From: Lachnospiraceae bacterium
GTDB taxonomy: Bacteria; Bacillota; Negativicutes; Veillonellales; Megasphaeraceae
Reading direction: 5' to 3'
Length of the DNA: 54,431 bases
NCBI GenBank assembly: GCA_963657835.1
Contig: CAVKOP010000001.1
Location: 1-54,431, forward strand
Program-made: the position numbers and the translations under genes
Part shown: piece by piece, positions 4,623 to 35,528 of the stretch
Numbering within the stretch: position 1 is the first letter of the stretch
How the letters are laid out: every line of letters begins with the position of its first letter
Notes under the pieces: generated by a model
Seen by the model: only the letters and a program-made list of their open reading frames with translations
Databases searched by the model: none
What the model was told of the DNA's origin: nothing

Positions 4623-4631
4623 CTGATGAAT

Positions 4632-4669
4632 ACAGGAATTCAGTGTATGAACTGGGTTCCTGTTTTTTT
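4632..4669 (+). terminator. Intrinsic terminator after the DAACS gene
   Basis: acaggaattcagt / actgggttcctgt stem plus T run. Confidence 0.75.
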
Positions 4670-4742
4670 ATATATCTGATATAATATATAGTATAAAAAA
4701 GTGATTTGAAAGGATGTTCCTGACAAAAAACTTTATAGATCA

Positions 4743-4843
4743 GCCGTCGTACTTGCTTGCAAAGAAAGTATCTGCGCAAATGAGGCGAAAGCACATACTA
4801 AAATAGTAGGTGAGCTCTGTGCTTTTGCATGGAGCTTTTTATT
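4743..4843 (+). promoter_or_regulatory. Candidate attenuator / riboswitch-like leader of the nif-like-hyp-hydF operon
   Basis: Terminator agctctgtgc(4813-4822)/gcatggagct(4827-4836)+TTTTT is mutually exclusive with gcgaaagcaca(4785-4795)/tgtgcttttgc(4818-4828); further upstream hairpin at 4743-4786. Confidence 0.55.
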
Positions 4844-4871
4844 ATAGACAAAAATGAAGAGGAGACCGTGT

Positions 4872-5120
4872 ATGGAAACAAGATTAGCTGTCATCGGCAT
4901 TGTCATTGGCAAACGGGAAGCAGCGGCCAAACTCAACGAACTGCTTCATGAATATGGACCGTATATTATCGGACGGATGGGCGTCCCGTATCAAAACAAA
5001 GAGGTTAGCGTGATCAGCGTCATCATTGACGCGCCGCAGGATGCTATCAACGCGTTGACAGGAAAGCTGGGCATGCTTCCTGACGTGAGCGCCAAAACGA
5101 TGTATCCGCCGCTGCCGTAA
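4872..5120 (+). CDS. TM1266-family putative iron-only hydrogenase system regulator (ACT-like fold)
   Basis: METRLAVIGIVI...LNELLHEY...IIGRMGVPY...INALTGKLGMLP matches the family as I recall it; GAGGAG RBS. Confidence 0.85.
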   Translation: METRLAVIGIVIGKREAAAKLNELLHEYGPYIIGRMGVPYQNKEVSVISVIIDAPQDAINALTGKLGMLPDVSAKTMYPPLP

Positions 5121-5132
5121 TAGGAGGATGTT

Positions 5133-5894
5133 ATGTTAAAACTTGCAATTTACGGCAAAGGCGGCATTGGCAAATCGACGATGACGAGTAATTTGGCGGC
5201 TGCCTTTGCGTATTTAGGAAAACGGGTCATCCAAATAGGCTGCGACCCGAAAGCGGATTCGACGTTTAATCTGCTGAACGGTAAGCCTGTCGAACCGGTG
5301 ATGAATTACCTGCGTGAACATGATGAAGATCCGCAGCGGATAGAAGATATTTCCCGTATTGGCTACGGCGGCGTTCTTTGCATTGAAACGGGCGGGCCGA
5401 CGCCGGGACTGGGCTGTGCCGGCCGCGGCATTATTGCTACGTTTGCTTTACTGGAAGATTTGGGGCTGTTCGAAACGTATCAGCCCGATGTCGTGTTGTA
5501 CGATGTGTTGGGCGATGTCGTCTGCGGCGGCTTTGCGGCGCCGATTCGGGAAGGATATGCCGAAGAAGTGCTGATTGTCACATCGGGCGAAAAAATGGCC
5601 TTGTATGCGGCTAACAACATTTATACAGCTGTACAGAATTTTGCAGACCGAAGCTATGCGACCGTGCGGGGGATTCTCTTCAACCGCCGCAATATTCCCG
5701 ACGAAGAAGCTAAGGTACGGGCTTTTGCCGAAAAAAATCAGCTTCCCATTATCGGAGACATTCCGCGAAGCGACGCGATTAATCAGTTTGAAGAAGAAGG
5801 AAAGACTGTCATTGAAGGCAACCCGGATTTGCCGATTAGCCAGACGTTTTTGCAGTTGGCGGCTTCCTTGCTGCAGGATAGGAAAAAGATATGA
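5133..5894 (+). CDS. Nitrogenase iron-protein-like ATPase/reductase, copy 1 (NifH/BchL/CfbC family)
   Basis: [11 protein letters not shown]-loop, [22 protein letters not shown] and [11 protein letters not shown]; both [4Fe-4S] Cys present. Confidence 0.92.
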
Positions 5895-7195
5895 CACACG
5901 AAAAGAAACCGTATTCTATTACCATCAGCCAATTGGTGGAGCTGGGCCGTGAACACATTCCGGCAGAGCTCATTTCCTCGACCCATTTGATTTATAACTC
6001 GCCGGCTGCCTTGGCGTTTAATTCACCGGGGGCGCAGGGGTTTGGCGTCAAGCGGGCCGGACTGGCGATTCCCGGTTCGGTGATGCTGCTTGTCGGTCCG
6101 GGATGCTGTGGCCGCAATACGACCATCCTCAGTGAAATGGGCGGCTACAGCGACCGATTTTTCTTTTACATTATGGATGAAACGGATATTGTCACAGGAC
6201 GGCATTTGCGCAATATCCCGCAGGCTGTAGAAGAAATCGTAGATTCCCTGCCTGCTGCGCCGTCTGTCGTCATGATTTGCATGACTTGTGCAGACGCGCT
6301 TTTGGGAACAGACATGGAACGTGTCTGCCGTAAGGCGGAAGCAAAAGTTGGTCTGCCTGTCGTTCCCTGTTATATGTACGCGCTGACGCGGGAAGGACGC
6401 AAACCGCCTATGGTAGATGTCCGGCGTGCCGTGTATTCGCTGCTGAAAAAACAGAAGCGGCAAAAACGGACCGTCAATTTGCTGGGATATTTTGCGCCGC
6501 TTCAGGCAGACTGTGAATTATACGACGTACTGCGCCAACTAGGCATTACTACAATTAACGAAATATCCCGCTGTCAAACGTTTGAAGAATATCAGGGCAT
6601 GGCTAAGGCTAATTTCAACGTGATTCTCAACCCGGAAGCCCGGCTGGCAGCGCAGCACATGGAAAAGAATCTGGGCATACCGAGTATTGAGCTGACGCGG
6701 CTGTATCAAGTCGGACAGATTCATAGGCAGTATCAGGCATTAGGACAAGTATTGCAGACGACGATTGATGATTCCCTTTGGTATGAAAAAGCAAAAACAG
6801 AAGTTGCTCGCATACGAAACCAATACAGCGGCACGACCGTGGCCATTGGGGAAATGCAGAACGGCAATGCCTTTGAAATGGCGTTGGCACTGACGCGGTA
6901 CGGGTTCTGCGTTCGGGAAATATATGCCAACCTGACAGGTGATGATTTTGTCTATCTTCGCCATTTGCAGACACTCAGCCCGGATACCCGCGTGTATTCG
7001 AATTTGTCGCCGTCTATGCTGTATTATGACGGCAGCCAGCATCCTGTGGATGTCACAATTGGCAAGGATGCGGCGTACTATCATGATGATAGCGCCCATG
7101 TTTTTTGGGATGAAGAAATCCAGCCGTTTGGCTATGCCGGCGTGCAGGCGCTGCTGCAAAAAATGGATGCGGCATTGCAAGGGAGGAACAGCTGA
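5891..7195 (+). CDS. Nitrogenase component-1-like subunit, alpha-like copy 1
   Basis: [36 protein letters not shown] and ANFNVILNP...MEKNLGIP fit the oxidoreductase nitrogenase component 1 fold; 4-nt overlap with the nifH-like gene. Confidence 0.85.
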
Positions 7196-8226
7196 TGAAA
7201 GGATTGTGGAAATATATATCGCCGTTTGCCCCGGACCAGTCGGGCGCGGCGGCTGTCCTCTACGGCTTGGGCGGTATCGTGGTCATTTGTGATGCCGGCG
7301 GCTGTGCCGGCAATATCTGCGGTTTTGATGAGCCGCGTTGGTTCAGCGGCAGAAAAAGCGCCGTATTTAGTGCGGGCCTGCGAGATATGGATGCTATTTT
7401 AGGCCGGGATGACAGGCTCATCGCCAAACTTTGTGATGCAGCGCAGACCATCGATGCTTCTTTTGCCGCCATTGTCGGCACGCCGGTGCCTTCCGTGATT
7501 GGCACGGATTATCGGGCACTGCAGCGAATGGCAGAAAAAAAGCTGGACATGCCCATCCTGACAATCGATACGACGGGAATGAAGCTGTATGACAAAGGCA
7601 TTGAAAAAGCCTATCTGGCTTTGCTGCGGCAGTTTACCCGGACGGATGATGCGCCGGAAAAAGACACAGTCGGCGTGCTGGGTGCGGTGCCTTTGGACTT
7701 GATGCATGCTGACGGCACGGAAGCGGTTTGTCAGGAACTGGTAGAAGACGGCTGGCAGCAGATTTTGCTTTATGATGATTTGGATGATTTCATTCATGCC
7801 GGCAAAGCGGATATGAATATTGTCGTGTCGCCGGCAGGATTAAAAGCGGCGCAGTATTTGCAGAAAACCATAGGCACGCCGTATGAACAGCGGTATTTTG
7901 GCTTGTCTCGCGTCGTGCCGGATAATTCTATCTTTGCCGGGAAAAATGTTCTTATCGTCCATCAGCAAACAGCGGCTCATGCTATGCGTGCGTTGGCAGA
8001 AGAAGCAGGCGCAGCGTATGTAACGACAGCGACCTGGTTTATGACGGAACAAACGAATCATGATGAAGGTGATATATCCTTGCGGGAAGAAGATGAGTTT
8101 CGCAGATTGGCTGACAACAATGATTTTGACATTATTTTGGGAGATGCCTATTTCCAAAAAGCACTGCCTCATTTTCAAGGCATGTATGTCGATTTTCCTC
8201 ATTTTGCCGTGTCTGGGAGGGGATAG
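7195..8226 (+). CDS. Nitrogenase component-1-like subunit, beta-like copy 1
   Basis: PDQSGA, DAGGCAGN, DMDAILG, GTPVPSVIGTD and NIVVSPAGLKAAQYL...GTPY; 1-nt stop/start overlap. Confidence 0.82.
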   Translation: MKGLWKYISPFAPDQSGAAAVLYGLGGIVVICDAGGCAGNICGFDEPRWFSGRKSAVFSAGLRDMDAILGRDDRLIAKLCDAAQTIDASFAAIVGTPVPSVIGTDYRALQRMAEKKLDMPILTIDTTGMKLYDKGIEKAYLALLRQFTRTDDAPEKDTVGVLGAVPLDLMHADGTEAVCQELVEDGWQQILLYDDLDDFIHAGKADMNIVVSPAGLKAAQYLQKTIGTPYEQRYFGLSRVVPDNSIFAGKNVLIVHQQTAAHAMRALAEEAGAAYVTTATWFMTEQTNHDEGDISLREEDEFRRLADNNDFDIILGDAYFQKALPHFQGMYVDFPHFAVSGRG

Positions 8227-8229
8227 CCT

Positions 8230-10527
8230 ATGAAAACGGAAGTCATTCGGCTTTTTGGCATCGTCCAGGGCGTCGGTTTTCGCCCCTTTGTCAGCCGAAC
8301 GGCTAAGACCTGCCGCATATATGGCAGCGTATGCAATAAAGGATCTTATGTCGAAGTGATTGCCCAAGGGGATGATGCGGCACGGCGGCAGTTTCATCAT
8401 GACCTGATTGCGAAAGCCCCGGCTCGTTCCAGCATCCTCAACGTATCGACTGCCATAGAAGACAGAAAGCCGTATACTGATTTTACGATTATAGAGAGTG
8501 CCAAGGAAAAAGGAGCCGTGTTTGTTTCGCCGGACATTGCCATTTGCGAGGAATGCAAAAAGGAATTATTTGATAAGACAAACCGGCGGTATCTGCATCC
8601 CTTCATCAACTGTACGGCATGCGGCCCGCGACTGACGATTCTCGATGCCATGCCCTATGACCGGGAACGGACGAGCATGGGGGAATTTCCCATGTGTGAT
8701 GCCTGCCATGAAGAATATACTCATCCGGAAACACGGCGGTACGACGCGCAGCCTGTCTGCTGTAATGACTGCGGCCCGGAGGTATATCTTTTGGGAAGAA
8801 AAGAACGGCGCAGAGAAGCTATCTGCAAGGCCCGAGAGGTGATTTGCCATGGCGGGATTATTGCCGTGAAGGGCATCGGCGGCTTTCACCTTTGCTGCGA
8901 TGCGGCCAATGATGACGCTGTACAACGGCTGCGTCAGCTGAAGCACCGTCCCGTCAAGCCGTTTGCCGTCATGATGAAAGACTTGGCCGCAGCCAAACGG
9001 GAATGTGTCGTTTCCCATGAACAGGCAGCACTGCTGGACGGACATGAAAAGCCGATTATGTTGCTGCGCAAACGAGCGCATACGTCGCTGTCTTCCTATA
9101 TTGCACCGGATAATCCCAACGTAGGGGTCATGCTGCCCTATACGCCGCTTCATTTGCTGCTGTTTACGTACGACGACGATTGGGTTATGCCGGACGCACT
9201 GGTCATGACCAGTGCCAATGCATCCGGTGCGCCGATTTGTCGTACCGATGAGGATGTCAAAACAGAAGTACTGGGGATGTGCGATCTTGTCTTGTCGCAT
9301 ACTCGTAAAATCCGGCTGCGTGCCGATGATTCGGTACTGGATTTTTATAACGGCAAACCGTATATGATACGGCGTTCCCGCGGCTATGCACCGCTGCCTT
9401 TTTTTGTAGGTACAGAAACGGGCAGACAGGTACTGGCCATTGGCGGTGAACTAAAAAACACGTTTTGTATCGGCAAAGACAATCTATATTACTTGTCCCC
9501 GTATATTGGCGATATGGCAGATATACGGACCGTTACGGCACTGCGTGAGTCGGTGACCCGTATGGAAACGTTGTTGGAAGCTTCACCATCTGTCGTAGCC
9601 TGTGACAGTCATCCCAGATACAATACGACAATAACAGCGCATGAATTAGGGCTTCCCGTCATAGAAGTACAGCATCATTATGCCCATGTTTTATCTTGTA
9701 TGGCAGAAAACGACTGCATCGATAGACCCGTTATTGGCGTATCGCTGGATGGAACCGGCTATGGAACTGATGAAACGATTTGGGGCGGCGAAATACTGTT
9801 GTGTGATATACACGGGTTTCGGCGCTGCGGCTCGATTGCGCCGTTTTGGCAGCGCGGCGGCGATGCATCGTCTAAAGAAGGATGGCGCATTGCTGTCAGC
9901 ATGATTGCGCAACTTGTGAAAGAACCGTCTGACATAGCAGCTGTCGTTCAGCAGCTGCAGCTTTGCGACGAGGTTAATTTGCAGGCTCAGCTGTTTATGG
10001 CTGCTAATCAGATTAACAGCGTTCGTTCTACCAGTACCGGACGGCTCTTTGATGCCGTAAGTGCCATTTTGGGGCTGTGCCGGGCGTCTACCTTTGAAGG
10101 GGAAGGTGCCATGAGGCTGCAATTTGCGGCAGAACGCGGCAAGGATACGGCAGAAGTGCTTTCGCTGGATATAGGCGCGGGGCAGATGCAGGACGCGCGC
10201 TATATACTGCCTACGGATAGATTGGTACAGGAACTGCTGCAGCGGCGTTTGCAGGGAGAAGACGTATCCCTGCTGGCGTATCAGTTTCACGATGCCTTGG
10301 CAAAGATGCTGGTGCAGGCCTGTGAACGGGTACGGGAAGAAACGCACTGCCAAACTGTAGCACTCAGCGGCGGCGTATTTCAAAACACGCTGCTGCTGCG
10401 TTTATGTGATGATAGGCTGCAAGGACGGGAATTTACGGTACTGAAGCATAGCTTGGTGCCGCCCAATGACGGCGGCATTGCCTTGGGACAGGCTGTATAT
10501 GCTATGTATAACAAAGGAGGAATTTGA
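8230..10527 (+). CDS. hypF: Carbamoyltransferase HypF
   Basis: Acylphosphatase GIVQGVGFRPFV, two zinc fingers (CEEC..CTACGPR; CDAC..CNDCGP), YrdC KGIGGFHL, Kae1 QHHYAH and PPNDGGIALGQ. Confidence 0.96.
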   Translation: MKTEVIRLFGIVQGVGFRPFVSRTAKTCRIYGSVCNKGSYVEVIAQGDDAARRQFHHDLIAKAPARSSILNVSTAIEDRKPYTDFTIIESAKEKGAVFVSPDIAICEECKKELFDKTNRRYLHPFINCTACGPRLTILDAMPYDRERTSMGEFPMCDACHEEYTHPETRRYDAQPVCCNDCGPEVYLLGRKERRREAICKAREVICHGGIIAVKGIGGFHLCCDAANDDAVQRLRQLKHRPVKPFAVMMKDLAAAKRECVVSHEQAALLDGHEKPIMLLRKRAHTSLSSYIAPDNPNVGVMLPYTPLHLLLFTYDDDWVMPDALVMTSANASGAPICRTDEDVKTEVLGMCDLVLSHTRKIRLRADDSVLDFYNGKPYMIRRSRGYAPLPFFVGTETGRQVLAIGGELKNTFCIGKDNLYYLSPYIGDMADIRTVTALRESVTRMETLLEASPSVVACDSHPRYNTTITAHELGLPVIEVQHHYAHVLSCMAENDCIDRPVIGVSLDGTGYGTDETIWGGEILLCDIHGFRRCGSIAPFWQRGGDASSKEGWRIAVSMIAQLVKEPSDIAAVVQQLQLCDEVNLQAQLFMAANQINSVRSTSTGRLFDAVSAILGLCRASTFEGEGAMRLQFAAERGKDTAEVLSLDIGAGQMQDARYILPTDRLVQELLQRRLQGEDVSLLAYQFHDALAKMLVQACERVREETHCQTVALSGGVFQNTLLLRLCDDRLQGREFTVLKHSLVPPNDGGIALGQAVYAMYNKGGI

Positions 10528-10528
10528 T

Positions 10529-10735
10529 ATGTGCGTAGGATTACCGGCACGGGTAGTAACGATAAAAAACGGTATGGCATTGGTGGATGCATCGGGAGCC
10601 AAGCGGGAAGTATCCGCTGAACTGATGGACCATTTGGATCCCGGTGACTATGTCATGGTACATGCAGGCATGGCGATTGCCAAAATAACCGATGACGATA
10701 CAGAGGAAACGGATGACATCTTGGAGGATTTATGA
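10529..10735 (+). CDS. hypC: Hydrogenase maturation chaperone HypC/HupF
   Basis: True start ATG 10529 (GGAGG RBS) gives the MCVGLP N-terminus; GDYVMVHAGMAI. Confidence 0.95.
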   Translation: MCVGLPARVVTIKNGMALVDASGAKREVSAELMDHLDPGDYVMVHAGMAIAKITDDDTEETDDILEDL

Positions 10736-11793
10736 TGGAAATGAAGAAAAAACGGACGGCACTGGAAATTATTCGACAGTATGACGGGCCGCCGATTCGC
10801 ATCATGGAAGTCTGCGGCACCCATACACATGAAATTTTCCGCCTTGGCATCCGACAGATTCTGCCGCCGCAAGTGGACTTGATTTCCGGGCCGGGGTGTC
10901 CTGTCTGCGTGACGCCGGTTGATTTTATTGATGAAGCTGTCTGGCTGGCACTGCACAAGGGCGTGACAATTTGCACCTTTGGTGATTTGGTTCGTGTTCC
11001 CGGCTCAGAAATGAGTTTGGCTGGCGCACGCAGCCAGGGCGCCCATATAGAAGTCGTTTATGCGCCGCTGGATGCTTTGACCTATGCGAAAGAACACCGT
11101 GATGAAGATGTTGTCTTTTTATCTGTCGGCTTTGAAACGACGACGCCGGCAAGTTGTCTGGCTGTCAAAAAAGCAAGAGAAGAAGGCATTGCGAATTTTT
11201 CTATCCTTACAGCCAATAAAACGATGCCGCAGGCTTATGAAGTCCTGAAAGGCAGTGCCGATGTGTTTTTATATCCCGGTCATGTAGAAGCTGTCGTGGG
11301 AACCAGACATTGCGAGGCGTTGGTACAGGAAGGTATATCCGGCGTAGTAGCTGGCTTTACGGCCAAAGAGCTGCTGACCGCCCTGGCTGTTATTATGGTA
11401 AAATTTCCCCAGGGCAAACCGTTTTTTAAAAATTGCTATCCCCGTGTGGTTACGGCAGCGGGAAGCCTGGCAGGACAACAGCTGATGGCTGAAGTGATGG
11501 AACCGTGCGATTCGCAGTGGCGCGGCCTGGGCATGATACGGCAGTCCGGCATGCGGCTGCAGTCGGCGTATGCGGCGTATGATGCCCGCAAAAAATATGA
11601 GGTTCCTTGTATGCATGGGCATGCCAATCCGGCCTGCCGCTGCGGCGATGTGCTGCAGGGAAAATGCAGACCGTCAGACTGCCCTGTGTTTGGCAAAGGC
11701 TGTACACCGGAGCATCCTGTAGGAGCCTGCATGGTATCTCATGAAGGAGCCTGCTCGGCATATTATCAATATGGAGGAATTTTACATGAATGA
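10732..11793 (+). CDS. hypD: Hydrogenase maturation protein HypD
   Basis: MEVCGTHTH, GPGCPVC, GFETT, PGHV and the C-terminal CRC...CPVFGKGCTP...GACMVSHEGAC. Confidence 0.96.
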   Translation: MMEMKKKRTALEIIRQYDGPPIRIMEVCGTHTHEIFRLGIRQILPPQVDLISGPGCPVCVTPVDFIDEAVWLALHKGVTICTFGDLVRVPGSEMSLAGARSQGAHIEVVYAPLDALTYAKEHRDEDVVFLSVGFETTTPASCLAVKKAREEGIANFSILTANKTMPQAYEVLKGSADVFLYPGHVEAVVGTRHCEALVQEGISGVVAGFTAKELLTALAVIMVKFPQGKPFFKNCYPRVVTAAGSLAGQQLMAEVMEPCDSQWRGLGMIRQSGMRLQSAYAAYDARKKYEVPCMHGHANPACRCGDVLQGKCRPSDCPVFGKGCTPEHPVGACMVSHEGACSAYYQYGGILHE

Positions 11794-12790
11794 TGTAGTA
11801 ACACTGGCGCATGGCGCCGGCGGCAGACAGACTGCCGAATTAATCGATACGGTATTTAAAGCACATTTTGCCAATCCTCAGTTTACTGGTGATGATGCGG
11901 CAGTTCTGCCTTTTGGCGATACCCGTTTGGCATTTACTACGGACGGCTTCATCGTGTCGCCGCCGGAATTTCCCGGAGGCAATATTGGCAAGCTGAGTAT
12001 TTGCGGTACTGTGAACGATTTGGCTTGTATGGGAGCTCAGCCCCTGTATCTGTCCTGTGCGTTTGTCATTGAAGAAGGCTTTCCGCTGGCTAAAGTAGAA
12101 GAATATGCGGCAGCCATGGAAAAAACAGCAGCGGAAGCAGGTGTGCGCATTGTAGCCGGTGATACCAAAGTTGCCGGCAAGGGGCAAGTAGACCATCTGT
12201 TTATTACGACGACGGGCATTGGCCGTATTATGGACGGCGTGCATACATCAGGAGCCCAGGCCAAGCCGGGCGATGCTGTCATTGTGACCGGCGACGTAGG
12301 ACGCCATGGCTGTACGATACTGCTGGCCCGTAATCAGTTTGGCATTGATGCCAATGTCACGAGTGACTGTGCGCCTTTATGGGGAACCGTTCAGTCCATG
12401 TTGGAAACAACGAAGGACATTCACGTCATTCGAGATGCGACCCGCGGCGGCGTCGGCACGGTTTTGTATGAAATCGCCGGACAGAGCCAGGTTGGCATTC
12501 GGCTGGACAGTCAGGCCGTTCCTGTAGATTCATCGGTGCGCGGCGTATGCGGCATGTTGGGACTGGAACCACTGTATTTAGCGTGCGAAGGCCGTTTGGT
12601 CGTCTTTGCGCCGAAAGATAAGGCCCAGGCTATTGTCGATACACTGCATAAAGGACCCTATTCAAAACAGGCGGCCATTATTGGCGAAGTCACGGCGGAA
12701 CAGCCGGGCCGCGTTATTGTACGGACTGAAATTGGCGCAAAAACGTTGCTGCCGCCGCCGGGCGGTGAATTGCTGCCCCGTATTTGTTAG
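11786..12790 (+). CDS. hypE: Carbamoyl dehydratase HypE
   Basis: LAHGAGG, DDAA, GTVNDL, GDTKV, RDATRGG and C-terminal PRIC; start ATG 11786 after GGAGG. Confidence 0.96.
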   Translation: MNDVVTLAHGAGGRQTAELIDTVFKAHFANPQFTGDDAAVLPFGDTRLAFTTDGFIVSPPEFPGGNIGKLSICGTVNDLACMGAQPLYLSCAFVIEEGFPLAKVEEYAAAMEKTAAEAGVRIVAGDTKVAGKGQVDHLFITTTGIGRIMDGVHTSGAQAKPGDAVIVTGDVGRHGCTILLARNQFGIDANVTSDCAPLWGTVQSMLETTKDIHVIRDATRGGVGTVLYEIAGQSQVGIRLDSQAVPVDSSVRGVCGMLGLEPLYLACEGRLVVFAPKDKAQAIVDTLHKGPYSKQAAIIGEVTAEQPGRVIVRTEIGAKTLLPPPGGELLPRIC

Positions 12791-12818
12791 AAACTAGCGG
12801 TTGGAAAGGTGGGATTGG

Positions 12819-13574
12819 ATGATAAAAATAGCTGTTTATGGAAAAGGCGGCATTGGCAAATCGACGACGGTTTCCAATATGGCGGCTGCCCTGGCAGAAA
12901 ACGGGCTGCAGGTCATGCAGATTGGCTGCGACCCGAAAGCCGACTCGACAGTCAGTCTGCGCGGCGGCCAGCCGGTACAAACGGTACTCGATTTGATGCG
13001 GCAGCAAAAGAAGGCATTTTCTCTGGAAGACATTGTGGCTGTCGGCTATCGCAATATTGTCTGTGTAGAGGCCGGCGGCCCGGCACCGGGAATGGGCTGT
13101 GCCGGACGTGGCATTATTGCCGCTTTGGAAACGTTAAAAGAAAAAGGCGCCTATGAAGTATATCGGCCTGATGTGGTGTTTTATGATGTATTGGGAGATG
13201 TGGTCTGCGGCGGTTTTTCTATGCCGATGCGAAAGGGATATGCTGACGCTGTTTTTATCGTCACGTCCGGAGAAAATATGGCACTGCACGCAGCAGCCAA
13301 CATTGCCATGGCGGTAGATCACTTTAAACAGCGGAGCTATGCGCGTCTTGGCGGCCTGATTTTAAATCGTCGCCATGTACCTCGTGAAGAAGAAAAAGTA
13401 CAAGAATTGGCAGCGGATATTCACGCGTCGGTTATCGGTGCATTGAACCGCAGTGATGTCGTTTTAAAAGCGGAAGAACTGGGAAAAACGGTTTTGGAAG
13501 CCTTTCCGGATAGTCCCATGGCGGACGAATATCGAACGCTGGCGCAGGCTGTCTATCAGGAAGCAATGAGGTGA
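12819..13574 (+). CDS. Nitrogenase iron-protein-like ATPase/reductase, copy 2
   Basis: [32 protein letters not shown] and [14 protein letters not shown]. Confidence 0.92.
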
Positions 13575-13578
13575 TGCT

Positions 13579-14910
13579 ATGCTGCAGCAAATGGGAAAGC
13601 AAACAAAAGAAACAAAGGCTGTCATACCGATAAAGGATGCTTCATTTCCGGCATTCTTTTATGATGGACTGCAGTATTCACCGCCTGCCAGAGGAACATG
13701 GAATATTGTGCATACGAATATGCTGGTCCCCGAATCCCACCAGATTTATATTTGCGCGTTAGGCTGTCTGCGCGGCGTTGTTTTGACTGCTGCTGAAATG
13801 GGCGCCATGAATCGGTTTTCGTCTATCGTCGTTGAAGAACATCATTTATATGACGGCACCATGGAAGACATGATCGTGCAGGCTGTAGGAGAGATTTTAA
13901 ACGGCCTGCGTCCTTATGTGCCCAGGGCTTGTTTTGTCTATCCGTCCTGCATTCATCATTTTATGGGATGCGATATGGATGACGTGTATCGGCGGCTGCG
14001 GGAAACTTATACGCAGACGCAATTTGTCGCTTGCTGGATGGACCCCATCCGGCGGGAATCCGATTTGACGGCAGAAATGCGGACACGGCGGCAGTTGTAC
14101 AGCCTGCTGCAAAAAACGGCCCTGCGTCCCGGCGATGTCAATATTGTTGGCAGTAATCTGGCTGTTCAGAAAGAGTGTGAACTCCTGTCTCTGCTGCAGC
14201 ATAACGGTATTGCCGTACATCAGCTGCCAGCCTGTGACACCTATGAAGCGTATGAAGCGATGGCTGCCAGTAGGTTGAATATCGGGCAGGAACCGCTGGC
14301 TAAAGGATGTTTGACGGATATGAAAGAACGGCTGGGACAAGAATCGTTATATATATCCAGTACTTGGGATATGGAAGAGATAGAAAAAAATTTGCAGGCT
14401 GTGGCTTCGTGCCTGCATATAGCATGCCCTTCGTATGCCGCAGAAAAAAAACAGTGTGAAAAGGCGTTGGCGCAGGCACGGCTTTGTTTGGGAGCAATGC
14501 CGATTGCCATTGATTATACGGCTGTAATGCGTCCCTTCAGCTTGGCCTGCTTGCTGCTAAAGCATGGCTTTTTGGTAGAACGAATCTATGCGGATGGGGC
14601 CAACCCGGAAGATGAAGCGGACTTTTACTGGATACAGTCGCACTATCCGCAGCTGCAGCTGTATGCAACGCGGCATGCCGATATGCGCTGTCTGGCCCGT
14701 ACGACGGAAGGGCCTATGCTGGCTATAGGGCAAAAAGCAGCGTATTTTACAGGCACCAGGCATTTTGTCAATATCGTAGAAGGCGGCGGCCTGCGTGATT
14801 ATGCCGGTATTTTACGGCTGACAGCGCTGCTGCAGGAAGCCTATCATACAGAAAAAGAAGCCAAGCCGTATATCAGCCGCAAAGGATGGGGGTGCGCTTC
14901 ATGTTTATGA
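13579..14910 (+). CDS. Nitrogenase component-1-like subunit, alpha-like copy 2
   Basis: ICALGCLRG, YPSCIHHFMGCD and VNIVG; AIGQKAAYF parallels TIGKDAAYY of copy 1. Confidence 0.8.
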   Translation: MLQQMGKQTKETKAVIPIKDASFPAFFYDGLQYSPPARGTWNIVHTNMLVPESHQIYICALGCLRGVVLTAAEMGAMNRFSSIVVEEHHLYDGTMEDMIVQAVGEILNGLRPYVPRACFVYPSCIHHFMGCDMDDVYRRLRETYTQTQFVACWMDPIRRESDLTAEMRTRRQLYSLLQKTALRPGDVNIVGSNLAVQKECELLSLLQHNGIAVHQLPACDTYEAYEAMAASRLNIGQEPLAKGCLTDMKERLGQESLYISSTWDMEEIEKNLQAVASCLHIACPSYAAEKKQCEKALAQARLCLGAMPIAIDYTAVMRPFSLACLLLKHGFLVERIYADGANPEDEADFYWIQSHYPQLQLYATRHADMRCLARTTEGPMLAIGQKAAYFTGTRHFVNIVEGGGLRDYAGILRLTALLQEAYHTEKEAKPYISRKGWGCASCL

Positions 14911-16118
14911 GAGAAGCCGTAAGCCGCATTGCAACGTATTCTGCGGACACATTTGGCGTCTGCTCGGCGTTGTTTGAACTGGGCGGCATGATTGTCATTC
15001 ATGACCCGTCGGGATGCAATTCGACGTATACGACGCATGATGAGCCGCGCTGGTATGAAAGAGACAGTTTAATTTTTATTTCCGGCCTGACTGAAATGGA
15101 TGCCCTCATGGGAAATGATGAAAAATTGGTTCATGATGTTATCGAAGGAGCTCGGCAGTTTTCCCCTCGTTTTATCGTCTTGTTGTGTACGCCTGTGCCC
15201 TTGATGATGGGGACTGATTTTCCGGCCTTGGCACAGGAAATTGAAGATGCCACAGGCATTCCGACGTTTGCAGGTACGACAAACAGCATGGAAACCTACG
15301 AAATAGGGATTTCTTGGGCATTGCAGCTGCTGGCAAACCACATCGTCAAAGAGAATCCTATTTCAGCCTCCGGTCATTTTTGCTGTTCTTGGCAGCCGAC
15401 CTTTGCGTCACAAAGTAAAAAGGCGATTCCAGTTAATGTCATAGGGATGACGCCTCTTGATTTTGCGTATCAGGGCAGTGAAAAAACGATACGGCGGTTT
15501 CTTGCGAAACAGGGATTTTCTGTGCGTAGTATTTGGGCTATGGGCAGCCGCCTGGAAGAAATTGAAATGGCAGGACAGGCTAAAGTCAATCTAGTCGTTT
15601 CCTATGGGGGGCAGGAAGCGGCAAACGTAATGAAAGAGCGGTTTGGCCAGCCGTATGTAGTCGGGGTGCCTATCGGATCGTTTCAAGACACGGTGCGTCA
15701 GGCATTGCTGCAGGCCGTACATACAGGAGAAAATCAGTATCCGTGTTTGCAGCGGACTAGTGCCGAGGACGCGAACCTTGCCATTATTGGTGAAAGTGTG
15801 TATGCGGCATCCTTGGCAGCTGCGTTGGAAATGGCTGTCGGCGTGCCTGTGCAGGTGCTGTGCCCGTTGGAACCGGCTGAAAAGACACTGCAGGAAACAG
15901 ACTGCCGCATTGCGTCCGAACAGGAACTGCAGGCGTGCTTGAGGGAAAAAGACATCATTATAGCTGACCCATTATATCAGCCTGTTTGTCCTGCTCGGAG
16001 CCGTGTAGTACCGTTGGGACACGAAGCATTTTCCGGCCGCATATACCAGCATGAAATTCCTGATTTGATGAAGCCGGAAATATTTGCTGAATTTGTAAAA
16101 CAAGTAAAAGGGGTGTAA
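14901..16118 (+). CDS. Nitrogenase component-1-like subunit, beta-like copy 2
   Basis: ADTFGV, HDPSGCNSTY, DEPRW, EMDALMG and CTPVPLMMGTD; start could be 14886, 14901 or 14907. Confidence 0.82.
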   Translation: MFMREAVSRIATYSADTFGVCSALFELGGMIVIHDPSGCNSTYTTHDEPRWYERDSLIFISGLTEMDALMGNDEKLVHDVIEGARQFSPRFIVLLCTPVPLMMGTDFPALAQEIEDATGIPTFAGTTNSMETYEIGISWALQLLANHIVKENPISASGHFCCSWQPTFASQSKKAIPVNVIGMTPLDFAYQGSEKTIRRFLAKQGFSVRSIWAMGSRLEEIEMAGQAKVNLVVSYGGQEAANVMKERFGQPYVVGVPIGSFQDTVRQALLQAVHTGENQYPCLQRTSAEDANLAIIGESVYAASLAAALEMAVGVPVQVLCPLEPAEKTLQETDCRIASEQELQACLREKDIIIADPLYQPVCPARSRVVPLGHEAFSGRIYQHEIPDLMKPEIFAEFVKQVKGV

Positions 16119-16123
16119 CGCAT

Positions 16124-17323
16124 ATGGGATTCAATGATACGCCGTCAGGGGAACGGATTCATATTGGCTTTTTTGGACGCCGCAATGCTGGCAAGTCCAG
16201 TGTCGTCAACGCAGTTACCGGACAAAGTCTGGCTATTGTATCCGATACGAAAGGAACGACGACCGACCCGGTTTATAAAGCGATGGAACTGCTGCCGTTG
16301 GGGCCGGTAGTGATTATCGATACGCCGGGGTTTGATGATGTCGGCTCGTTAGGGGCCCTGCGCGTGCAAAAGACCAAAGAGGTGCTGCATAAAACAGACA
16401 TTGCCGTACTGGTCATTGATGCAGCAGAGGGCATGACGCAGAGCGATACGGATATACTGCAGCTTATTCGGGAACGGCAAATCCCGTATTTAATTGTCTA
16501 TAATAAAGCGGACTGCCTTGCCAGTCATGCCAAGGCGGCCCAGAATGAAATATATGTCAGCGCATTGTCGAAGCAGGGCATTACAGCACTAAAAGAACGA
16601 TTGGCCCGGCTGAAGCCCCAAGAAACATCTGTGCCGCTTGTCAGTGATTTAATTCATGCCGGTGATTTTGTCGTACTTGTCGTGCCTATCGACTCGGCAG
16701 CTCCCAAGGGCCGGCTTATCTTGCCGCAGCAGCAGACGATTCGAGACGTGTTGGATGCAGACTGCACGGCTGTCGTCGTTAAAGAAAATGAGCTGCGCCG
16801 TACGTTAGCTCAACTGGGAAAACAGCCGGCCTTAGTTATTACGGACAGCCAGGCCTTTGCCAGTGTATCTAACGATACGCCGCAGGATATTTTATTGACG
16901 TCATTCTCTATTTTGATGGCCCGACATAAGGGATTTTTAGAAGAAGCCGTTCATGGCGTAACTGCGCTGGACCGGCTGCAGGACGGCGATACCGTTCTCA
17001 TTTCGGAAGGCTGCACACATCATCGGCAGTGTGAAGATATTGGTACGGTAAAACTGCCTCGTTGGATTCATGAATATACAGGGAAAACGATTCAAATTGA
17101 AACGACAAGCGGTCGGGAATTTCCGGTAGACCTGTCTTCCTATGCCATGGTCATTCACTGCGGCGGCTGCATGCTCAATGGTCGGGAAATGCAGTTTCGC
17201 ATGCAGCATGCTCATGCCCAGGGCATTCCGATTACCAATTACGGCATCACCATTGCTTATATGAAGGGCATTTTAAAACGGAGTTTACGTGTATTTCCTT
17301 CATTGGCTGCGTTGATTCCCTGA
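16124..17323 (+). CDS. hydF: [FeFe]-hydrogenase H-cluster maturation GTPase HydF
   Basis: GRRNAGKSS, GTTTDPV, DTPG and NKAD GTPase motifs; APKGRLILPQ, TDSQAF; cluster motif CTHH...HCGGC. Confidence 0.95.
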   Translation: MGFNDTPSGERIHIGFFGRRNAGKSSVVNAVTGQSLAIVSDTKGTTTDPVYKAMELLPLGPVVIIDTPGFDDVGSLGALRVQKTKEVLHKTDIAVLVIDAAEGMTQSDTDILQLIRERQIPYLIVYNKADCLASHAKAAQNEIYVSALSKQGITALKERLARLKPQETSVPLVSDLIHAGDFVVLVVPIDSAAPKGRLILPQQQTIRDVLDADCTAVVVKENELRRTLAQLGKQPALVITDSQAFASVSNDTPQDILLTSFSILMARHKGFLEEAVHGVTALDRLQDGDTVLISEGCTHHRQCEDIGTVKLPRWIHEYTGKTIQIETTSGREFPVDLSSYAMVIHCGGCMLNGREMQFRMQHAHAQGIPITNYGITIAYMKGILKRSLRVFPSLAALIP

Positions 17324-17472: not shown

Positions 17473-17548
17473 TTGAAAGTTTGGCTTGCAAGTGTTATGA
17501 TATAAGCATAAACAAGCTGCGACGATAACAGTGTACATGTTGTCGTCG
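17473..17548 (+). promoter_or_regulatory. SigA promoter plus downstream inverted repeat (module copy A)
   Basis: TTGAAA-N17-TATGAT (17473-17501) with TG extension; then cgacgataaca/tgttgtcgtcg. Confidence 0.6.
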
Positions 17549-17595
17549 TTTGTATTTGTTTTATATTTTTCTGAATGATAAAGGAGTCTTATACC

Positions 17596-18261: not shown

Positions 18262-18414
18262 ATAGGACGGCATGTGGCTGTGTTGGGACAGCGTTTTCTG
18301 TATAGATGTAAAAATAACATATGACAGTGTAGGCAGAAACTTTGACCGAAGGGCCTTCTTGTGGGACAATATGACTATACATACGATAGTAAGTTAGACA
18401 TACGAGAGGCAGTT

Positions 18415-19704
18415 ATGGTCAAAGTTTCTTTACATTTAGAACAAAGAATAAAATTATCGCAAATGCAGCGGCTTACGATTCAGATGATGACGCTCCATGG
18501 ACAAGACTTGCAGGATTTTTTGCGTGAACAAGTCACGGATAATCCGCTGTTGGACATTCGCTATCGCGATGTCAGACAGCATGCCGGCAAAGACTATTCA
18601 GAAAAGCCGATAGAGGCTGCCTGCAGTCGAGGTGATTCATTGGAAGAAAAACTGATGAAAGAGCTGCGGGTGCAGACGGCGCCGAAAAAAGTTATGCTGG
18701 CAGCCGGGCTGGTCATTCAATCGTTGGATGAAAAAGGATTTTTCCAAGGAGATTTAGCTGCCATAGGTACGGCATACGGCTTGGGCTTGGCAGACATGGA
18801 ACAGGGACTGATACTAGTGCAGTCGTTTGAACCGGCAGGCATTGCCGCGCGTTCTATTCGCGAAGCCCTGCTGATTCAGACGCGGCGGCGGCAGGATGCA
18901 CCGGCAGGAACGGAAGAACTGTTGGAACTGTATTACGATGACTTTCTTCACGGACGCTGGCAGCGGCTGGAAAAAGAGATGAATGCATCTGCTGGTGCGA
19001 TACGCCGTATTCGTGCGTTTTTGAAAAAACTTTCACTGCAGCCGGCACCGCAGGCAGAAACTGAAACGGAATATGTGCGGGCAGATGTAGAAATTTTTTG
19101 TGATGCTCAGGGCCATCTGCAGGTTCGTTCACTGGAAGAACTGCCGGAAGTGTTTTTTAGAGATGACTTATACGCAGTGTATAAAAAAGATGGAGATAAA
19201 GCGACTCAGACGTTTATCCGCCGGGCAAAGCGGCAGTTTTTAGATTTACAGACGGCCTTAGCGTATCGCTGGCAGTCTATTTTTACAGTCATGCAGTATA
19301 TTTTGGATCGGCAGCAAAATTATTTTTTGCATGATGAAAACCTGCGGCCGTTGACACAAGCTGCCATTGCCAAAGGAACGGGTCTTAGTACAGCTACTGT
19401 AAGCCGCGTATGCCGAAATCGGTATGCATTGTTCAAACAACGTATATATCCGGTACAAAGTTTTTTGGCCCATTCCTACCGGGACGATTCCCGCGCGGAC
19501 GGTCTCACGTCCGATCAAGCGATTATGCAGGAGATGCTCCGCCTGATTGCCGAAGAAGATAGTCAGCATCCGTGGTCAGACCAGGAAATTGCAGTATATT
19601 TCAGTCAAAAAAATATTCATATTGCGAGAAGAACGGTGACAAAATTTCGTTTAAAGATGAATATTCCTAATAGTAATATGCGTAAACGTCTAAAAAACTC
19701 ATAG
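18415..19704 (+). CDS. rpoN: RNA polymerase sigma-54 factor
   Basis: Q/L-rich region I, DNPLL, SLDEKGF, QSFEPAGIAARS, LRPLT...TVSR, SDQEI and RpoN box ARRTVTKFR. Confidence 0.9.
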   Translation: MVKVSLHLEQRIKLSQMQRLTIQMMTLHGQDLQDFLREQVTDNPLLDIRYRDVRQHAGKDYSEKPIEAACSRGDSLEEKLMKELRVQTAPKKVMLAAGLVIQSLDEKGFFQGDLAAIGTAYGLGLADMEQGLILVQSFEPAGIAARSIREALLIQTRRRQDAPAGTEELLELYYDDFLHGRWQRLEKEMNASAGAIRRIRAFLKKLSLQPAPQAETETEYVRADVEIFCDAQGHLQVRSLEELPEVFFRDDLYAVYKKDGDKATQTFIRRAKRQFLDLQTALAYRWQSIFTVMQYILDRQQNYFLHDENLRPLTQAAIAKGTGLSTATVSRVCRNRYALFKQRIYPVQSFLAHSYRDDSRADGLTSDQAIMQEMLRLIAEEDSQHPWSDQEIAVYFSQKNIHIARRTVTKFRLKMNIPNSNMRKRLKNS

Positions 19705-34560: not shown

Positions 34561-34751
34561 GAAAAAAACATCCTTTCCTGTAAAGTAGGTCGTACGTTAT
34601 GATAGTATATAGAGCATGTTTATTATACCATAAAAAAAGTGAAAAACTTATGCTATCTTATGGGTCTGAGTACTGGCTACGCGGTACTGTCTATGCTATA
34701 CTATAATATAGACTTTAAATATCTGATGAATCATGGAATGAGGTGGGTGTG

Positions 34752-35528
34752 TTGACGCATATCATTGCCGTAACGAACCAAAAAGGCGGCGTTGGGAAGA
34801 CGACGACAGCGATTAGTTTAAGTGCATGTCTGGCCGATTGCGGCAAGAGAACGCTGCTTGTCGATTTGGACCCGCAGGGCAATGCTACCAGCGGCTTGGG
34901 CATTGATAAAACCAGCCTGACAAAGAATTTATATGACTGCCTCATAGAGCAGACGCCTATGACGGAAGTCGTTCAAAAGACGATGATAAAAAAACTGGCT
35001 GTTGTTCCGGCCACCATGGATGTAGCCGGAGCTGCTGTAGAATTAGTAACCATAGATAAACGGGAACATGTTTTGAAAAACGTATTGTACGAATATTTGC
35101 ATACGGTGAAGAAGCCGTATGATTATGTTGTGATTGATTGCCCCCCGTCGTTGGGACTTTTGACGATCAACGCATTAGTGGCAGCAGATTCTGTGTTGAT
35201 TCCCGTACAGTGTGAATTTTATGCGCTGGAAGGGTTGGCACAGTTGATGCAGACAGTAGAAATGGTGCGCAGCAGCCTGAATGACAAGCTGCATCTATTG
35301 GGACTGTTGATGACGATGTATGACGGCCGTACCAATTTATCTATTCAAGTAACAGAAGAAGTGAAAAAATATTTCAGCGGGCAAGTATTTAAGACCATTA
35401 TTCCGCGAAATGTCCGGCTTGGCGAAGCACCAAGCCATGGTGAACCGATTACCATTTATGATCCCCATTCCAAAGGGGCAGAAGTATATAAAAAATTAGC
35501 AAAAGAGGTGATTCGCCGTGTCGGCTAA
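34752..35528 (+). CDS. parA: Chromosome partitioning ATPase Soj/ParA
   Basis: NQKGGVGKTTT, DLDPQGNATSG, IDCPPSLG, PVQCEFYALEG and PRNVRLGEAPSHG; start could be 34743, 34749 or 34752. Confidence 0.95.
   Translation: MTHIIAVTNQKGGVGKTTTAISLSACLADCGKRTLLVDLDPQGNATSGLGIDKTSLTKNLYDCLIEQTPMTEVVQKTMIKKLAVVPATMDVAGAAVELVTIDKREHVLKNVLYEYLHTVKKPYDYVVIDCPPSLGLLTINALVAADSVLIPVQCEFYALEGLAQLMQTVEMVRSSLNDKLHLLGLLMTMYDGRTNLSIQVTEEVKKYFSGQVFKTIIPRNVRLGEAPSHGEPITIYDPHSKGAEVYKKLAKEVIRRVG

Follow-up and report, generated by a model that had tools for sequence, protein, structure and literature searches.

A nitrogenase-like, HypFCDE and HydF gene set of Megasphaera-type bacteria as a candidate HydG-independent branch of [FeFe]-hydrogenase H-cluster biosynthesis

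Introduction

The stretch of DNA analysed here (the window; 54,431 nucleotides of contig CAVKOP010000001.1, from a genome placed in the Megasphaeraceae) carries an operon in which a TM1266-family gene is followed by a first set of NifH-, NifD/NifE- and NifK/NifN-like genes (H1-D1-K1, triad 1), by hypF-C-D-E, by a second nitrogenase-like set (H2-D2-K2, triad 2) and by hydF. The question raised by this locus is what such a combination of genes serves to build. To our knowledge, HydE, HydF and HydG are held to be universal and to suffice for the maturation of [FeFe]-hydrogenases, HydG is regarded as the only source of the CO and CN of the H-cluster, and HypF/HypE provide the only known enzymology by which iron-bound CN is formed from carbamoyl phosphate. 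The answer that we favour, and hold to be rather probable, is that the operon represents a HydG-independent branch of [FeFe]-hydrogenase H-cluster biosynthesis, which is composed of two modules.

An initial annotation of the window, made from the sequence alone, knew of no characterised system with such an architecture. This agrees with the literature, since no characterisation of the system was found in the full-text literature, most subscription journals lying outside its coverage, and within the same coverage no publication joining "HydG" and "nitrogenase-like" was found. The only trace is a one-sentence mention of the gene association, with a suggested role in active-site metallocluster assembly (Dos Santos 2012, PMC3464626). 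The system meant there is very probably the same one, and the relevant passage of that paper mentions no characterisation, two modules, linkage to HydF, HydE or TM1266, or absence of HydG. In the available portion of a 2026 Chem Rev review of nitrogenase-like systems (PMC13474568), HypF, HydF and hydrogenase maturation are not mentioned, and the accessible text of the cited literature describes several group IV clades as functionally unassigned. A survey of acetogenic clostridia (PMC9431212) reports, in its accessible part, HypCDEF without HypAB and a HydG that is hard to find in some species; nitrogenase-like genes are not mentioned in that part. What is new here is the absence of HydG from genomes that bear triad 2 and keep HydE, HydF and [FeFe]-hydrogenases.

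Results and discussion

Hydrogenases and maturases in the host genome and in Megasphaera

The genome to which the window belongs (G000; 2.2 Mb in 272 contigs, 86% complete) contains five [FeFe]-hydrogenase matches, one of which keeps the TSCCP, PCTAKK and EVMACPGGCIGGGGQP motifs. HydE was found on another contig (326 bits), where its gene is surrounded by housekeeping genes only, and there is a single hydF match, that of the operon, in this genome; one match was also obtained in Megasphaera G001 and G002 and in G316, G300 and G005. HydG did not reach its cut-off: the best match to the HydG model in the host genome scored 199.8 bits against the required 312, those in four Megasphaera genomes, one of them complete, scored 188–207 bits, and none of the genomes G000–G005 had a HydG above the cut-off. 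The protein that gave the best match to the HydG model in the host genome and in G001 is ThiH, with 490–507 bits against the ThiH cut-off of 380 (507 in the host genome). ThiH as a stand-in tyrosine lyase is not a general solution, because G179 gave only a match of 7.3e-22 to the HydG model and G195 gave none at 1e-20.

The system thus resembles HydEFG maturation in the HydF encoded by the operon, in the HydE encoded elsewhere in the genome, in the hydrogenases with H-cluster motifs and in its TM1266-family gene, which is typical of hyd maturase clusters. This gene belongs to the TM1266 family both by the family cut-offs and by its hyd maturase context, and its relatives adjoin hydE or hydF in many loci. 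It differs from HydEFG maturation in that HydG, the radical-SAM tyrosine lyase that supplies CO and CN, was not found in the host genome, and in that other taxa hold a nitrogenase-like triad in a cluster with hydE and hydF. If all three maturases together with an [FeFe]-hydrogenase are taken as the definition of the HydEFG system, the host genome does not have it, and the missing part is HydG. Consequently, the [FeFe] enzymes of Megasphaera are without a known source of CO and CN.

The Hyp proteins pose the opposite problem. HypF, HypC, HypD and HypE of the operon all exceed their equivalog cut-offs and keep their motifs (Table 1), as in HypABCDEF maturation of [NiFe]-hydrogenases. Unlike in that pathway, the [NiFe] large subunit (PF00374) was not found in the host genome or in G001–G004, one of which is complete, and HypB was above its cut-off in none of six Megasphaera genomes (HypA was not searched for), so that HypFCDE appears in Megasphaera without a [NiFe] enzyme to serve. 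A HypCDEF set accompanied by a [NiFe] large subunit and HypB is therefore not what the host genome contains. A further difference is that hypF is fixed beside a NifH/D/K-like set. It could be supposed that HypFCDE matures a divergent [NiFe]-type enzyme that escaped detection and that the rest of the operon is unrelated. In line with this, G081 and G175 carry [NiFe] large subunits with a HypD of their own, and weak N-terminal PF00374 matches (47–54 bits) occur in G035, G195 and G005. We give this explanation almost no credence in view of the missing PF00374 and HypB in Megasphaera and of the constant neighbour of hypF, which was H1-D1-K1 in every case.

Distribution of triad 2 and HydG

The occurrence of HydG was compared with that of D2 in an even sample of 201 Bacillota genomes from 98 families. 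HydG was above its cut-off in 98 and HydF in 104 of them; 97 genomes had both, one had HydG only (G019, 82% complete) and seven had HydF only (G000, G161, G035, G081, G179, G195, and G175). D2 orthologues with 38–47% identity were present in six of these seven genomes (all but G175). The 97 genomes in which HydF and HydG occur together contained no orthologue, G185 giving only a lone triad of 24% identity. Close relatives show the same contrast. Within genus g3, the triads occur without HydG in G035, and G122 has HydG (922 bits) without a triad, while in family f8 a triad without HydG occurs in G179 and HydG without a triad in G010, G061 and G143. An in situ replacement of hydG could not be argued from the sister genome G122, because hydG stands alone there and offers no synteny to compare.

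A sample of 151 Negativicutes gave a similar picture. The D2 type was found in 17 genomes, that is, in all 11 Megasphaera and in six of the 21 members of family f3. HydG, present in 115 of the 151 genomes, was missing from 16 of the 17 D2-bearing ones and present in 114 of the 134 others. Among 81 Lentisphaeria, the D2 type occurred in four genomes, all of which had HydF and none of which had HydG, compared with HydG in 43 of the 77 genomes without the triad. In two of the genomes from this class (G397 and G400), HydF was encoded within approximately 2 kb of D2.

Conservation of the operon in Megasphaera-type genomes

When D1 was used as a query against species-representative genomes, 24 loci were obtained, 22 of which are titled Megasphaera; one more was at 93% identity, and one, at 56%, belongs to a Lentisphaerae metagenome-assembled genome. 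A tblastn map of the 23 Megasphaera-type loci revealed the full set from TM1266 to HydF in 19, and the remaining four are cut off by a contig end, the part that is present being collinear. Lack of a conserved gene order had been set beforehand as the finding that would speak against a functional unit; instead, the order was kept throughout. As the arrangement recurs in every related locus of sufficient length, it is not due to chance.

Triad 2 occurs in two forms among these loci. Twelve Megasphaera-type loci have the H2-D2-K2 form seen in the window, and seven, including those of Megasphaera elsdenii and Megasphaera massiliensis, have a D-K-H form (Table 1), whose D and K proteins are 32–39% identical to D2 and K2 of the window. 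In a quick IQ-TREE phylogeny of 54 D2-type sequences, with four D1 sequences as the outgroup, the two forms sit in different starred subclades. Triad 2 has thus undergone a xenologous swap, in which a remote relative took over its position within the operon.

Gene neighbourhoods of the triads

A metagenome scan with the D2 alignment was evaluated for the best 80 of at least 485 relatives, which fall into 42 clusters at 70% identity. TM1266, HydE or HydF was encoded near D2 in 63 of the 80 loci and in 41 of the 45 that span 10 kb or more; the corresponding counts for any Hyp gene were 46 and 35. Taken singly, TM1266 was found in 57, HydF in 28 and HydE in 14 of the 80 loci. HydG was near D2 in none of these 80 metagenome loci, the 45 longer ones included. 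Thirteen loci had neither TM1266, HydE, HydF nor Hyp genes, and 11 of them are not longer than 5 kb. Thus, the triads usually occur together with hyp and hydF genes; had the opposite been true, the initial annotation would have lost its basis. Both modules recur together in other families of the Bacillota and in Lentisphaeria.

At least six gene orders were distinguished among the D2 loci: (1) TM1266, H1D1K1, HypFCDE, H2D2K2, HydF; (2) H1D1K1, HypFCDE, TM1266, H2D2K2, HydF; (3) TM1266, HydE, H2D2K2, H1D1K1, HypFCDE; (4) H1D1K1, HypFCDE, TM1266, D2K2, HydF, HydE; (5) TM1266, H2D2K2, H1D1K1, HypFCDE; and (6) TM1266, FecCD permease, ATPase, HydE, H2D2K2, binding protein, HydF. Parts of an ATP-binding cassette (ABC) transporter of the FecCD/binding-protein type, as in the sixth order, were near D2 in eight of the 45 longer loci, and Hyp and D1 were never present in these eight. 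An example is G179 (100% complete), where TM1266, an ABC permease, an ABC ATPase, HydE, H2-D2-K2, a binding protein and HydF form one cluster. This genome has four [FeFe]-hydrogenase matches, and HydG, HypD, HypF and the [NiFe] large subunit were not found in it. The Hyp and ABC contexts are interspersed in the D2 tree, on which the ABC label requires at least four changes.

These neighbourhoods bear on the explanation that the juxtaposition of the genes is regulatory or accidental and that the triads carry out an unrelated reduction, for example, of a sulfur compound or a tetrapyrrole. The characterised group IV enzymes do cleave C–S bonds or reduce tetrapyrroles, as stated in the available portion of the review (PMC13474568), and the distant lone triad of G185 stands beside a sugar ABC transporter in a genome with HydG. 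We consider such an accident very improbable, since the linkage persists in two phyla and through no fewer than six gene orders, G179 has its hydE and hydF interspersed with the triad genes, and the pattern of occurrence against HydG would be left unexplained. The G185 triad itself (L044:8718-11978, minus strand; 35% identity to D1 and 24% to D2) adjoins the sugar-type ABC transporter and lies near a double-cubane-cluster reductase; it probably has a different nitrogenase-like function.

Two further features of the G179 cluster were noted. The ABC ATPase (L045:13222-14292, minus strand) has a TM1266-like domain at its C-terminus (PF21699, 62 bits, residues 279–350); this fusion hints that the TM1266 fold exerts its regulatory role through ligand sensing and not through DNA binding. 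Directly 3′ of hydF, a DUF1015 protein of 420 aa is encoded (L045:5246-6508, minus strand).

Placement of the nitrogenase-like proteins

The nitrogenase-like proteins were placed by curated cut-offs, by profile search against the PDB and by fold search. They are members of the nitrogenase-like superfamily by their PF00142 and PF00148 matches, P-loops and Cys pairs, and they remained below the cut-off of every characterised family examined. True nitrogenases (Nif/Vnf/AnfHDK) are excluded by the nifH scores of H1 (301.5 bits) and H2 (331.2 bits) against the cut-off of 394.35 and by nifD scores of 37 and 35 bits for D1 and K2 against 653.55; D2 did not match nifD, and no operon protein matched the NifK model. 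The NifEN scaffold model nifE gave 68, 40, 24 and 55 bits against 505, and there is no nif context in the window. For CfbCD, H1 and H2 scored 294.6 and 320.1 bits with CfbC (cut-off 402), and the CfbD model (TIGR03282) gave 21–22 bits against 268. The values for DPOR/COR were 212 and 196 bits with BchL (cut-off 345), 28 with BchN (420) and 39 and 52 with BchB (490), and H1 and H2 were below the BchX cut-off, as well.

With group IV (CfbCD, MarHDK, isethionate reductase) and DPOR/COR, the operon proteins share PF00142/PF00148 and the logic of a three-part, ATP-driven reductase, and H1 and H2 score nearly as high on CfbC as on NifH. They differ from these enzymes by falling below the curated cut-offs and by a context of hydrogenase maturases instead of sulfur or tetrapyrrole genes. 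Among solved structures, NifE is the closest by profile both to D1 (57 bits) and to D2 (27 bits). The AF2 model of D2 (pLDDT 87.8) is matched about equally by NifEN, NifDK, DPOR and MAR (TM scores 0.57–0.68, 12–16% identity); the MAR chains are ordinary matches among these, with TM scores of 0.57–0.65 and 13–14% identity. Judged from this model, D2 is a member of the superfamily without a close solved neighbour.

The conserved cysteines are in accordance with a likeness to NifEN, whose interface [4Fe-4S] cluster has a 3 + 1 Cys pattern. D2 has three invariant cysteines, C59, C63 and C124 (36 of 36 sequences), and K2 has a single one, C44, within DxSGCNSTYxTHDExR (32 of 32 sequences). C133 of D1 and C124 of D2 align with the "TCV" cysteine of NifE in the profile alignment. 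In the column of the NifE/NifD cofactor cysteine, which we take to be the equivalent of NifD Cys275, neither D1 nor D2 has a Cys when aligned by profile with NifE. Five cysteines of D1 (C72, C73, C130, C133 and C228) are conserved in 28 of 28 sequences and two of K1 (C37 and C42, within DAGGCAGNICGFDEPRW) in 29 of 29; by their number, the conserved cysteines of D1/K1 exceed the needs of a single interface cluster. Selenocysteine at the cluster cysteine of K2, which in-frame TGA codons in L119 and L120 had brought up, was rejected, because an in-frame stop lies upstream of the true K2 start.

Besides the closest profile match, the 3-Cys (D2) plus 1-Cys (K2) pattern and a dedicated NifH-like ATPase, the system shares with NifH/NifEN the occurrence of fusions, D1-K1 here and NifE-N there. 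It is unlike NifH/NifEN in its low scores (24–68 bits against 505), in the cofactor-ligand cysteine that is not kept and in the absence of a nifB/nifD/nifK context. A D1-K1 fusion of 850 aa with two PF00148 stretches is encoded in G081 (L043:12320-14872, minus strand), and open frames for D1-K1 fusions of approximately 790–920 aa were seen in the Negativicutes genomes G081, G264, G270, G282 and G300. A complex prediction of HypC on D1K1 gave a score of 0.00, which counts neither way.

These data have to be weighed also for the case that the D and K proteins are end users, that is, a new nitrogenase-like enzyme or pair of enzymes (a new kind of hydrogenase or a small-molecule reductase, for example) with an Fe–CN/CO cofactor provided by HypFCDE, HydE and HydF, the loss of HydG being a separate event. 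The two triads would then resemble the division into a catalytic NifDK and a scaffolding NifEN, the surplus of conserved cysteines in D1K1 and the isolated position of the D2 model would fit such enzymes, and the Hyp genes of Megasphaera, which have no [NiFe] target, would find a use. Even so, we regard this possibility as unlikely, because it does not explain how four or five [FeFe]-hydrogenases are matured without HydG or why the distribution is nearly exclusive with respect to HydG, the NifD/NifE cofactor cysteine is not kept at the aligned position, and triad 2 occurs without Hyp genes in G179.

A proposed HydG-independent pathway

Since triad 2 marks the genomes that have HydF without HydG (six of seven in the Bacillota) and adjoins hydE, hydF and TM1266, we infer a non-orthologous replacement of HydG as the most economical account of these data. 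In the favoured two-module pathway, module 1 (HypF-C-D-E with H1-D1-K1) would make an iron unit with CN and CO, for which CN would come from carbamoyl phosphate via HypF/HypE and low-potential electrons from the H1-driven reductase. Module 2 (H2-D2-K2) would act as a NifEN-like scaffold with a 3-Cys + 1-Cys interface cluster. It would take the place of HydG and pass an Fe(CO)x(CN) building block on to HydE, and HydF, as the next recipient, would load the hydrogenases. Module 1 occurs in most of the lineages. In others, an ABC importer of the Fe-chelate type is found in place of module 1, and its position suggests that it supplies what the Hyp module otherwise makes. The initial annotation had described the operon as one unit that builds or uses an Fe–CN/CO centre. 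Its idea of a single metallocofactor system is supported as far as the common purpose is concerned; in fact, there are two modules, H1-D1-K1 with the Hyp genes and H2-D2-K2 with HydE, HydF and TM1266, and triad 2 is able to occur without the Hyp genes, as in G179. The building of an Fe–CN/CO centre is presumed, and the pattern of HydG absence points to the H-cluster as this centre.

A more specific version of this pathway can be put forward only tentatively, and we consider it possible rather than probable. According to this, D2K2 with H2, either alone or fed by HypFCDE and D1K1/H1, would put CO (perhaps derived from CO2) and CN on iron by means of ATP-driven, low-potential electrons, giving an [Fe(CO)2CN]-type synthon like the one that HydG forms from tyrosine, and the lineages with the importer would salvage an extracellular precursor. 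If this were true, a radical-SAM-independent pathway of organometallic iron would represent both a new catalytic role in the nitrogenase superfamily and a second origin of H-cluster ligands.

Alternatively, the triads could participate in another step of H-cluster assembly, such as iron or sulfide supply, reductive coupling of Fe units or formation of the dithiomethylamine bridge, with CN coming from the Hyp proteins, CO from some further source and the loss of HydG tolerated in some other way. NifH couples Fe-S clusters reductively in P-cluster maturation, and this can be counted for such a role. The linkage to hydE, hydF and TM1266 fits it equally well, as does the Fe-chelate-type importer (FecCD, Peripla_BP_2) interleaved with these genes in G179. 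We nevertheless think it quite unlikely: the component that is specifically missing is HydG, the maker of the diatomic ligands, while HydE and HydF are kept, and G179 has no Hyp genes to provide CN.

Several points weigh against the replacement of HydG by the two modules. G179-type genomes have no Hyp genes, so Hyp is not a universal source of CN, and the origin of CN and CO in these genomes is unexplained. Contact of a D or K protein with an Fe–CO/CN species is itself something that we infer. G175 (80% complete) has HydF and neither HydG nor a triad. The Megasphaera genome G316 carries HydG (894 bits) in addition to the system, and so the two are not strictly exclusive. The operon of G316 is split: TM1266-D1-K1-HypFCDE-HydF, the Hyp part being without a NifH-like gene, is separated by approximately 40 kb from D2-K2-H, which lies beside rpoN. 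Such a split may be transitional. Because related genomes do not count as independent observations, the number of separate lineages behind the pattern is about five to seven (Megasphaera, three genera of family f3, f8, f95, and Lentisphaeria). The absence of HydG was determined by hidden Markov model cut-offs on draft genomes, and the host genome, in particular, is 86% complete. The Bacillota cross-tabulation of HydF, HydG and D2 was made by hand, and the HydF status was left unchecked in 20 Negativicutes without triad and without HydG.

The proposed branch contradicts the assumed universality of HydG. Megasphaera, a genus with a hydrogenase that is a standard subject of research (the available text of PMC6695573 lists MeHydA with the artificially matured enzymes), and several other gut and rumen lineages in two phyla have HydE, HydF and hydrogenases, no HydG, and the nitrogenase-like/Hyp set instead. 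If the replacement is real, it would mean a second biosynthetic route to CO/CN-ligated iron, reveal what an orphan branch of the nitrogenase superfamily does, account for Hyp genes in organisms without [NiFe]-hydrogenase and provide a new toolkit for hydrogenase production in heterologous hosts.

Structure of the operon in the window

Naming of the open reading frames of the window by Pfam and NCBIfam reproduced the twelve gene identities proposed earlier, at the place given for the operon. The twelve frames are on the plus strand and nearly abut from 4854/4872 to 17323, in the order TM1266-like, H1-D1-K1, HypF-C-D-E, H2-D2-K2, HydF (Table 1). The junctions measure −53 to +12 nucleotides if the longest frames are taken, well in keeping with the spacing of at most 28 nucleotides claimed before, and the motifs of the maturases, inspected in the translations, are all intact. 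Family scans found no hydrogenase or nitrogenase structural gene and no nif gene within the window, as the initial annotation had stated for the structural genes. Its remark that no internal terminator was seen holds for the strong signals only: the three strongest terminator-like hairpins (11–13 pairs; 4632-4663, 4812-4837 and 17519-17549) are outside the genes, and weaker internal matches exist, such as the hairpin at 12760-12778 at the hypE/H2 junction, with 8 pairs and a poor T-run. The total of 25 terminator-like matches is not above the expectation from shuffled sequence (17.8 ± 4.7).

Table 1. Genes and signals of the operon and related loci in other genomes
Feature	Position	Strand	Family match	Motifs and remarks
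TM1266-family small protein, putative [FeFe]-hydrogenase-system regulator by annotation	4872..5120	+	TIGR03959 115 bits (cut-off 60.8); PF21699	Longest frame starts at 4854; ATG at 4872 preceded by GAGGAG ribosome-binding site and probably the true start
H1, NifH-like ATPase/reductase, triad 1	5133..5894	+	PF00142 291 bits	P-loop GKGGIGKS and cluster Cys pair C95/C131, kept in 28/28 sequences
D1, NifD/NifE-like, triad 1	5891..7195	+	PF00148 122 bits; best NCBIfam nifE, 68 bits (cut-off 505)	
K1, NifK/NifN-like, triad 1	7195..8226	+	PF00148 74 bits	
HypF carbamoyltransferase	8230..10527	+	TIGR00143 759 bits (cut-off 466)	Domains complete: acylphosphatase, two Zn-finger pairs, YrdC, Kae1-like; four CxxC motifs
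HypC chaperone	10529..10735	+	TIGR00074 72 bits (cut-off 48)	N-terminus MCVGLP; Cys2 invariant in 7/7 sequences
HypD [4Fe-4S] scaffold	10732..11793	+	TIGR00075 382 bits (cut-off 193)	GPGCPVC, GFETT, CMHGH (CxHxH)
HypE	11741..12790	+	TIGR02124 411 bits (cut-off 252), match from residue 20	C-terminus PRIC; true start probably slightly downstream of 11741
H2, NifH-like ATPase/reductase, triad 2	12801..13574	+	PF00142 298 bits	P-loop and Cys pair C100/C136, kept in 45/45 sequences
D2, NifD/NifE-like, triad 2	13579..14910	+	PF00148 68 bits; nifE 24 bits (cut-off 505)	
K2, NifK/NifN-like, triad 2	14886..16118	+	PF00148 103 bits	True start probably near 14901-14907, judged from relatives
HydF, H-cluster scaffold GTPase	16124..17323	+	TIGR03918 576 bits (cut-off 326)	CxHx46HCxxC motif and P-loop present
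Conserved 5′ leader	4735..4850	+		11-pair terminator hairpin 4812-4837 plus T-run
Terminator-like hairpin closing the operon	17519..17549	+		12 pairs, T-rich tail after
System of G316	L135:6459-9720, L136:3564-11929, L137:7413-8822			
D-K-H form of triad 2	L017, L022, L023, L024, L026, L027, L029			e.g. L023:10631-13898

Leader, promoter region and flanking genes

The operon is preceded by a conserved leader (Table 1). In 20 of the 23 Megasphaera-type loci, a single copy of GGCGAARGCAC precedes TM1266, and the Megasphaera leaders contain the blocks CTGACrGAAAACTTyAT, TGCAAAG..CTGCGC and AGGCGAAAGCAC, followed by the hairpin and T-run. Folding of 10 leaders by RNAalifold gave 22 pairs, nine of them with compensatory changes. 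The conserved GCACA of the leader is complementary to TGTGC, which is part of the 5′ arm of the terminator, and might pair with it as an antiterminator, and on these grounds the leader is a candidate for a new transcription attenuator or riboswitch-like element. No Rfam family was above its gathering score in the window, the leader included. Outside Megasphaera, the leader motif gave a single match (L049), which lies inside a coding region and was taken as chance.

A sigma-54 (−24/−12) site was not found in 4623-4853, and the window as a whole has 36 matches, compared with 41.3 expected. The gene of sigma-54 itself, rpoN, is located just 3′ of the operon (18361-19704), and several other loci of Megasphaera, as well as G316, likewise have it close by. 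The G+C content of the operon is 0.51–0.52 (window positions 6001-16000), compared with 0.43–0.48 in the flanking 2-kb windows, and this difference may stem from the make-up of the proteins encoded there or from a foreign origin.

Elsewhere, the window contains ordinary chromosomal genes, with a dctA-like transporter gene, rpoN, a CoA-transferase gene, parAB, bioB, nusG and the genes of ribosomal proteins L1 and L10. A radical-SAM/BATS gene at 43370-44362 was considered as well and proved to be BioB (404 bits). The parA and parB genes at 34743-36450 are followed by a DUF4446 gene, which suggests that the window is close to the chromosomal origin.

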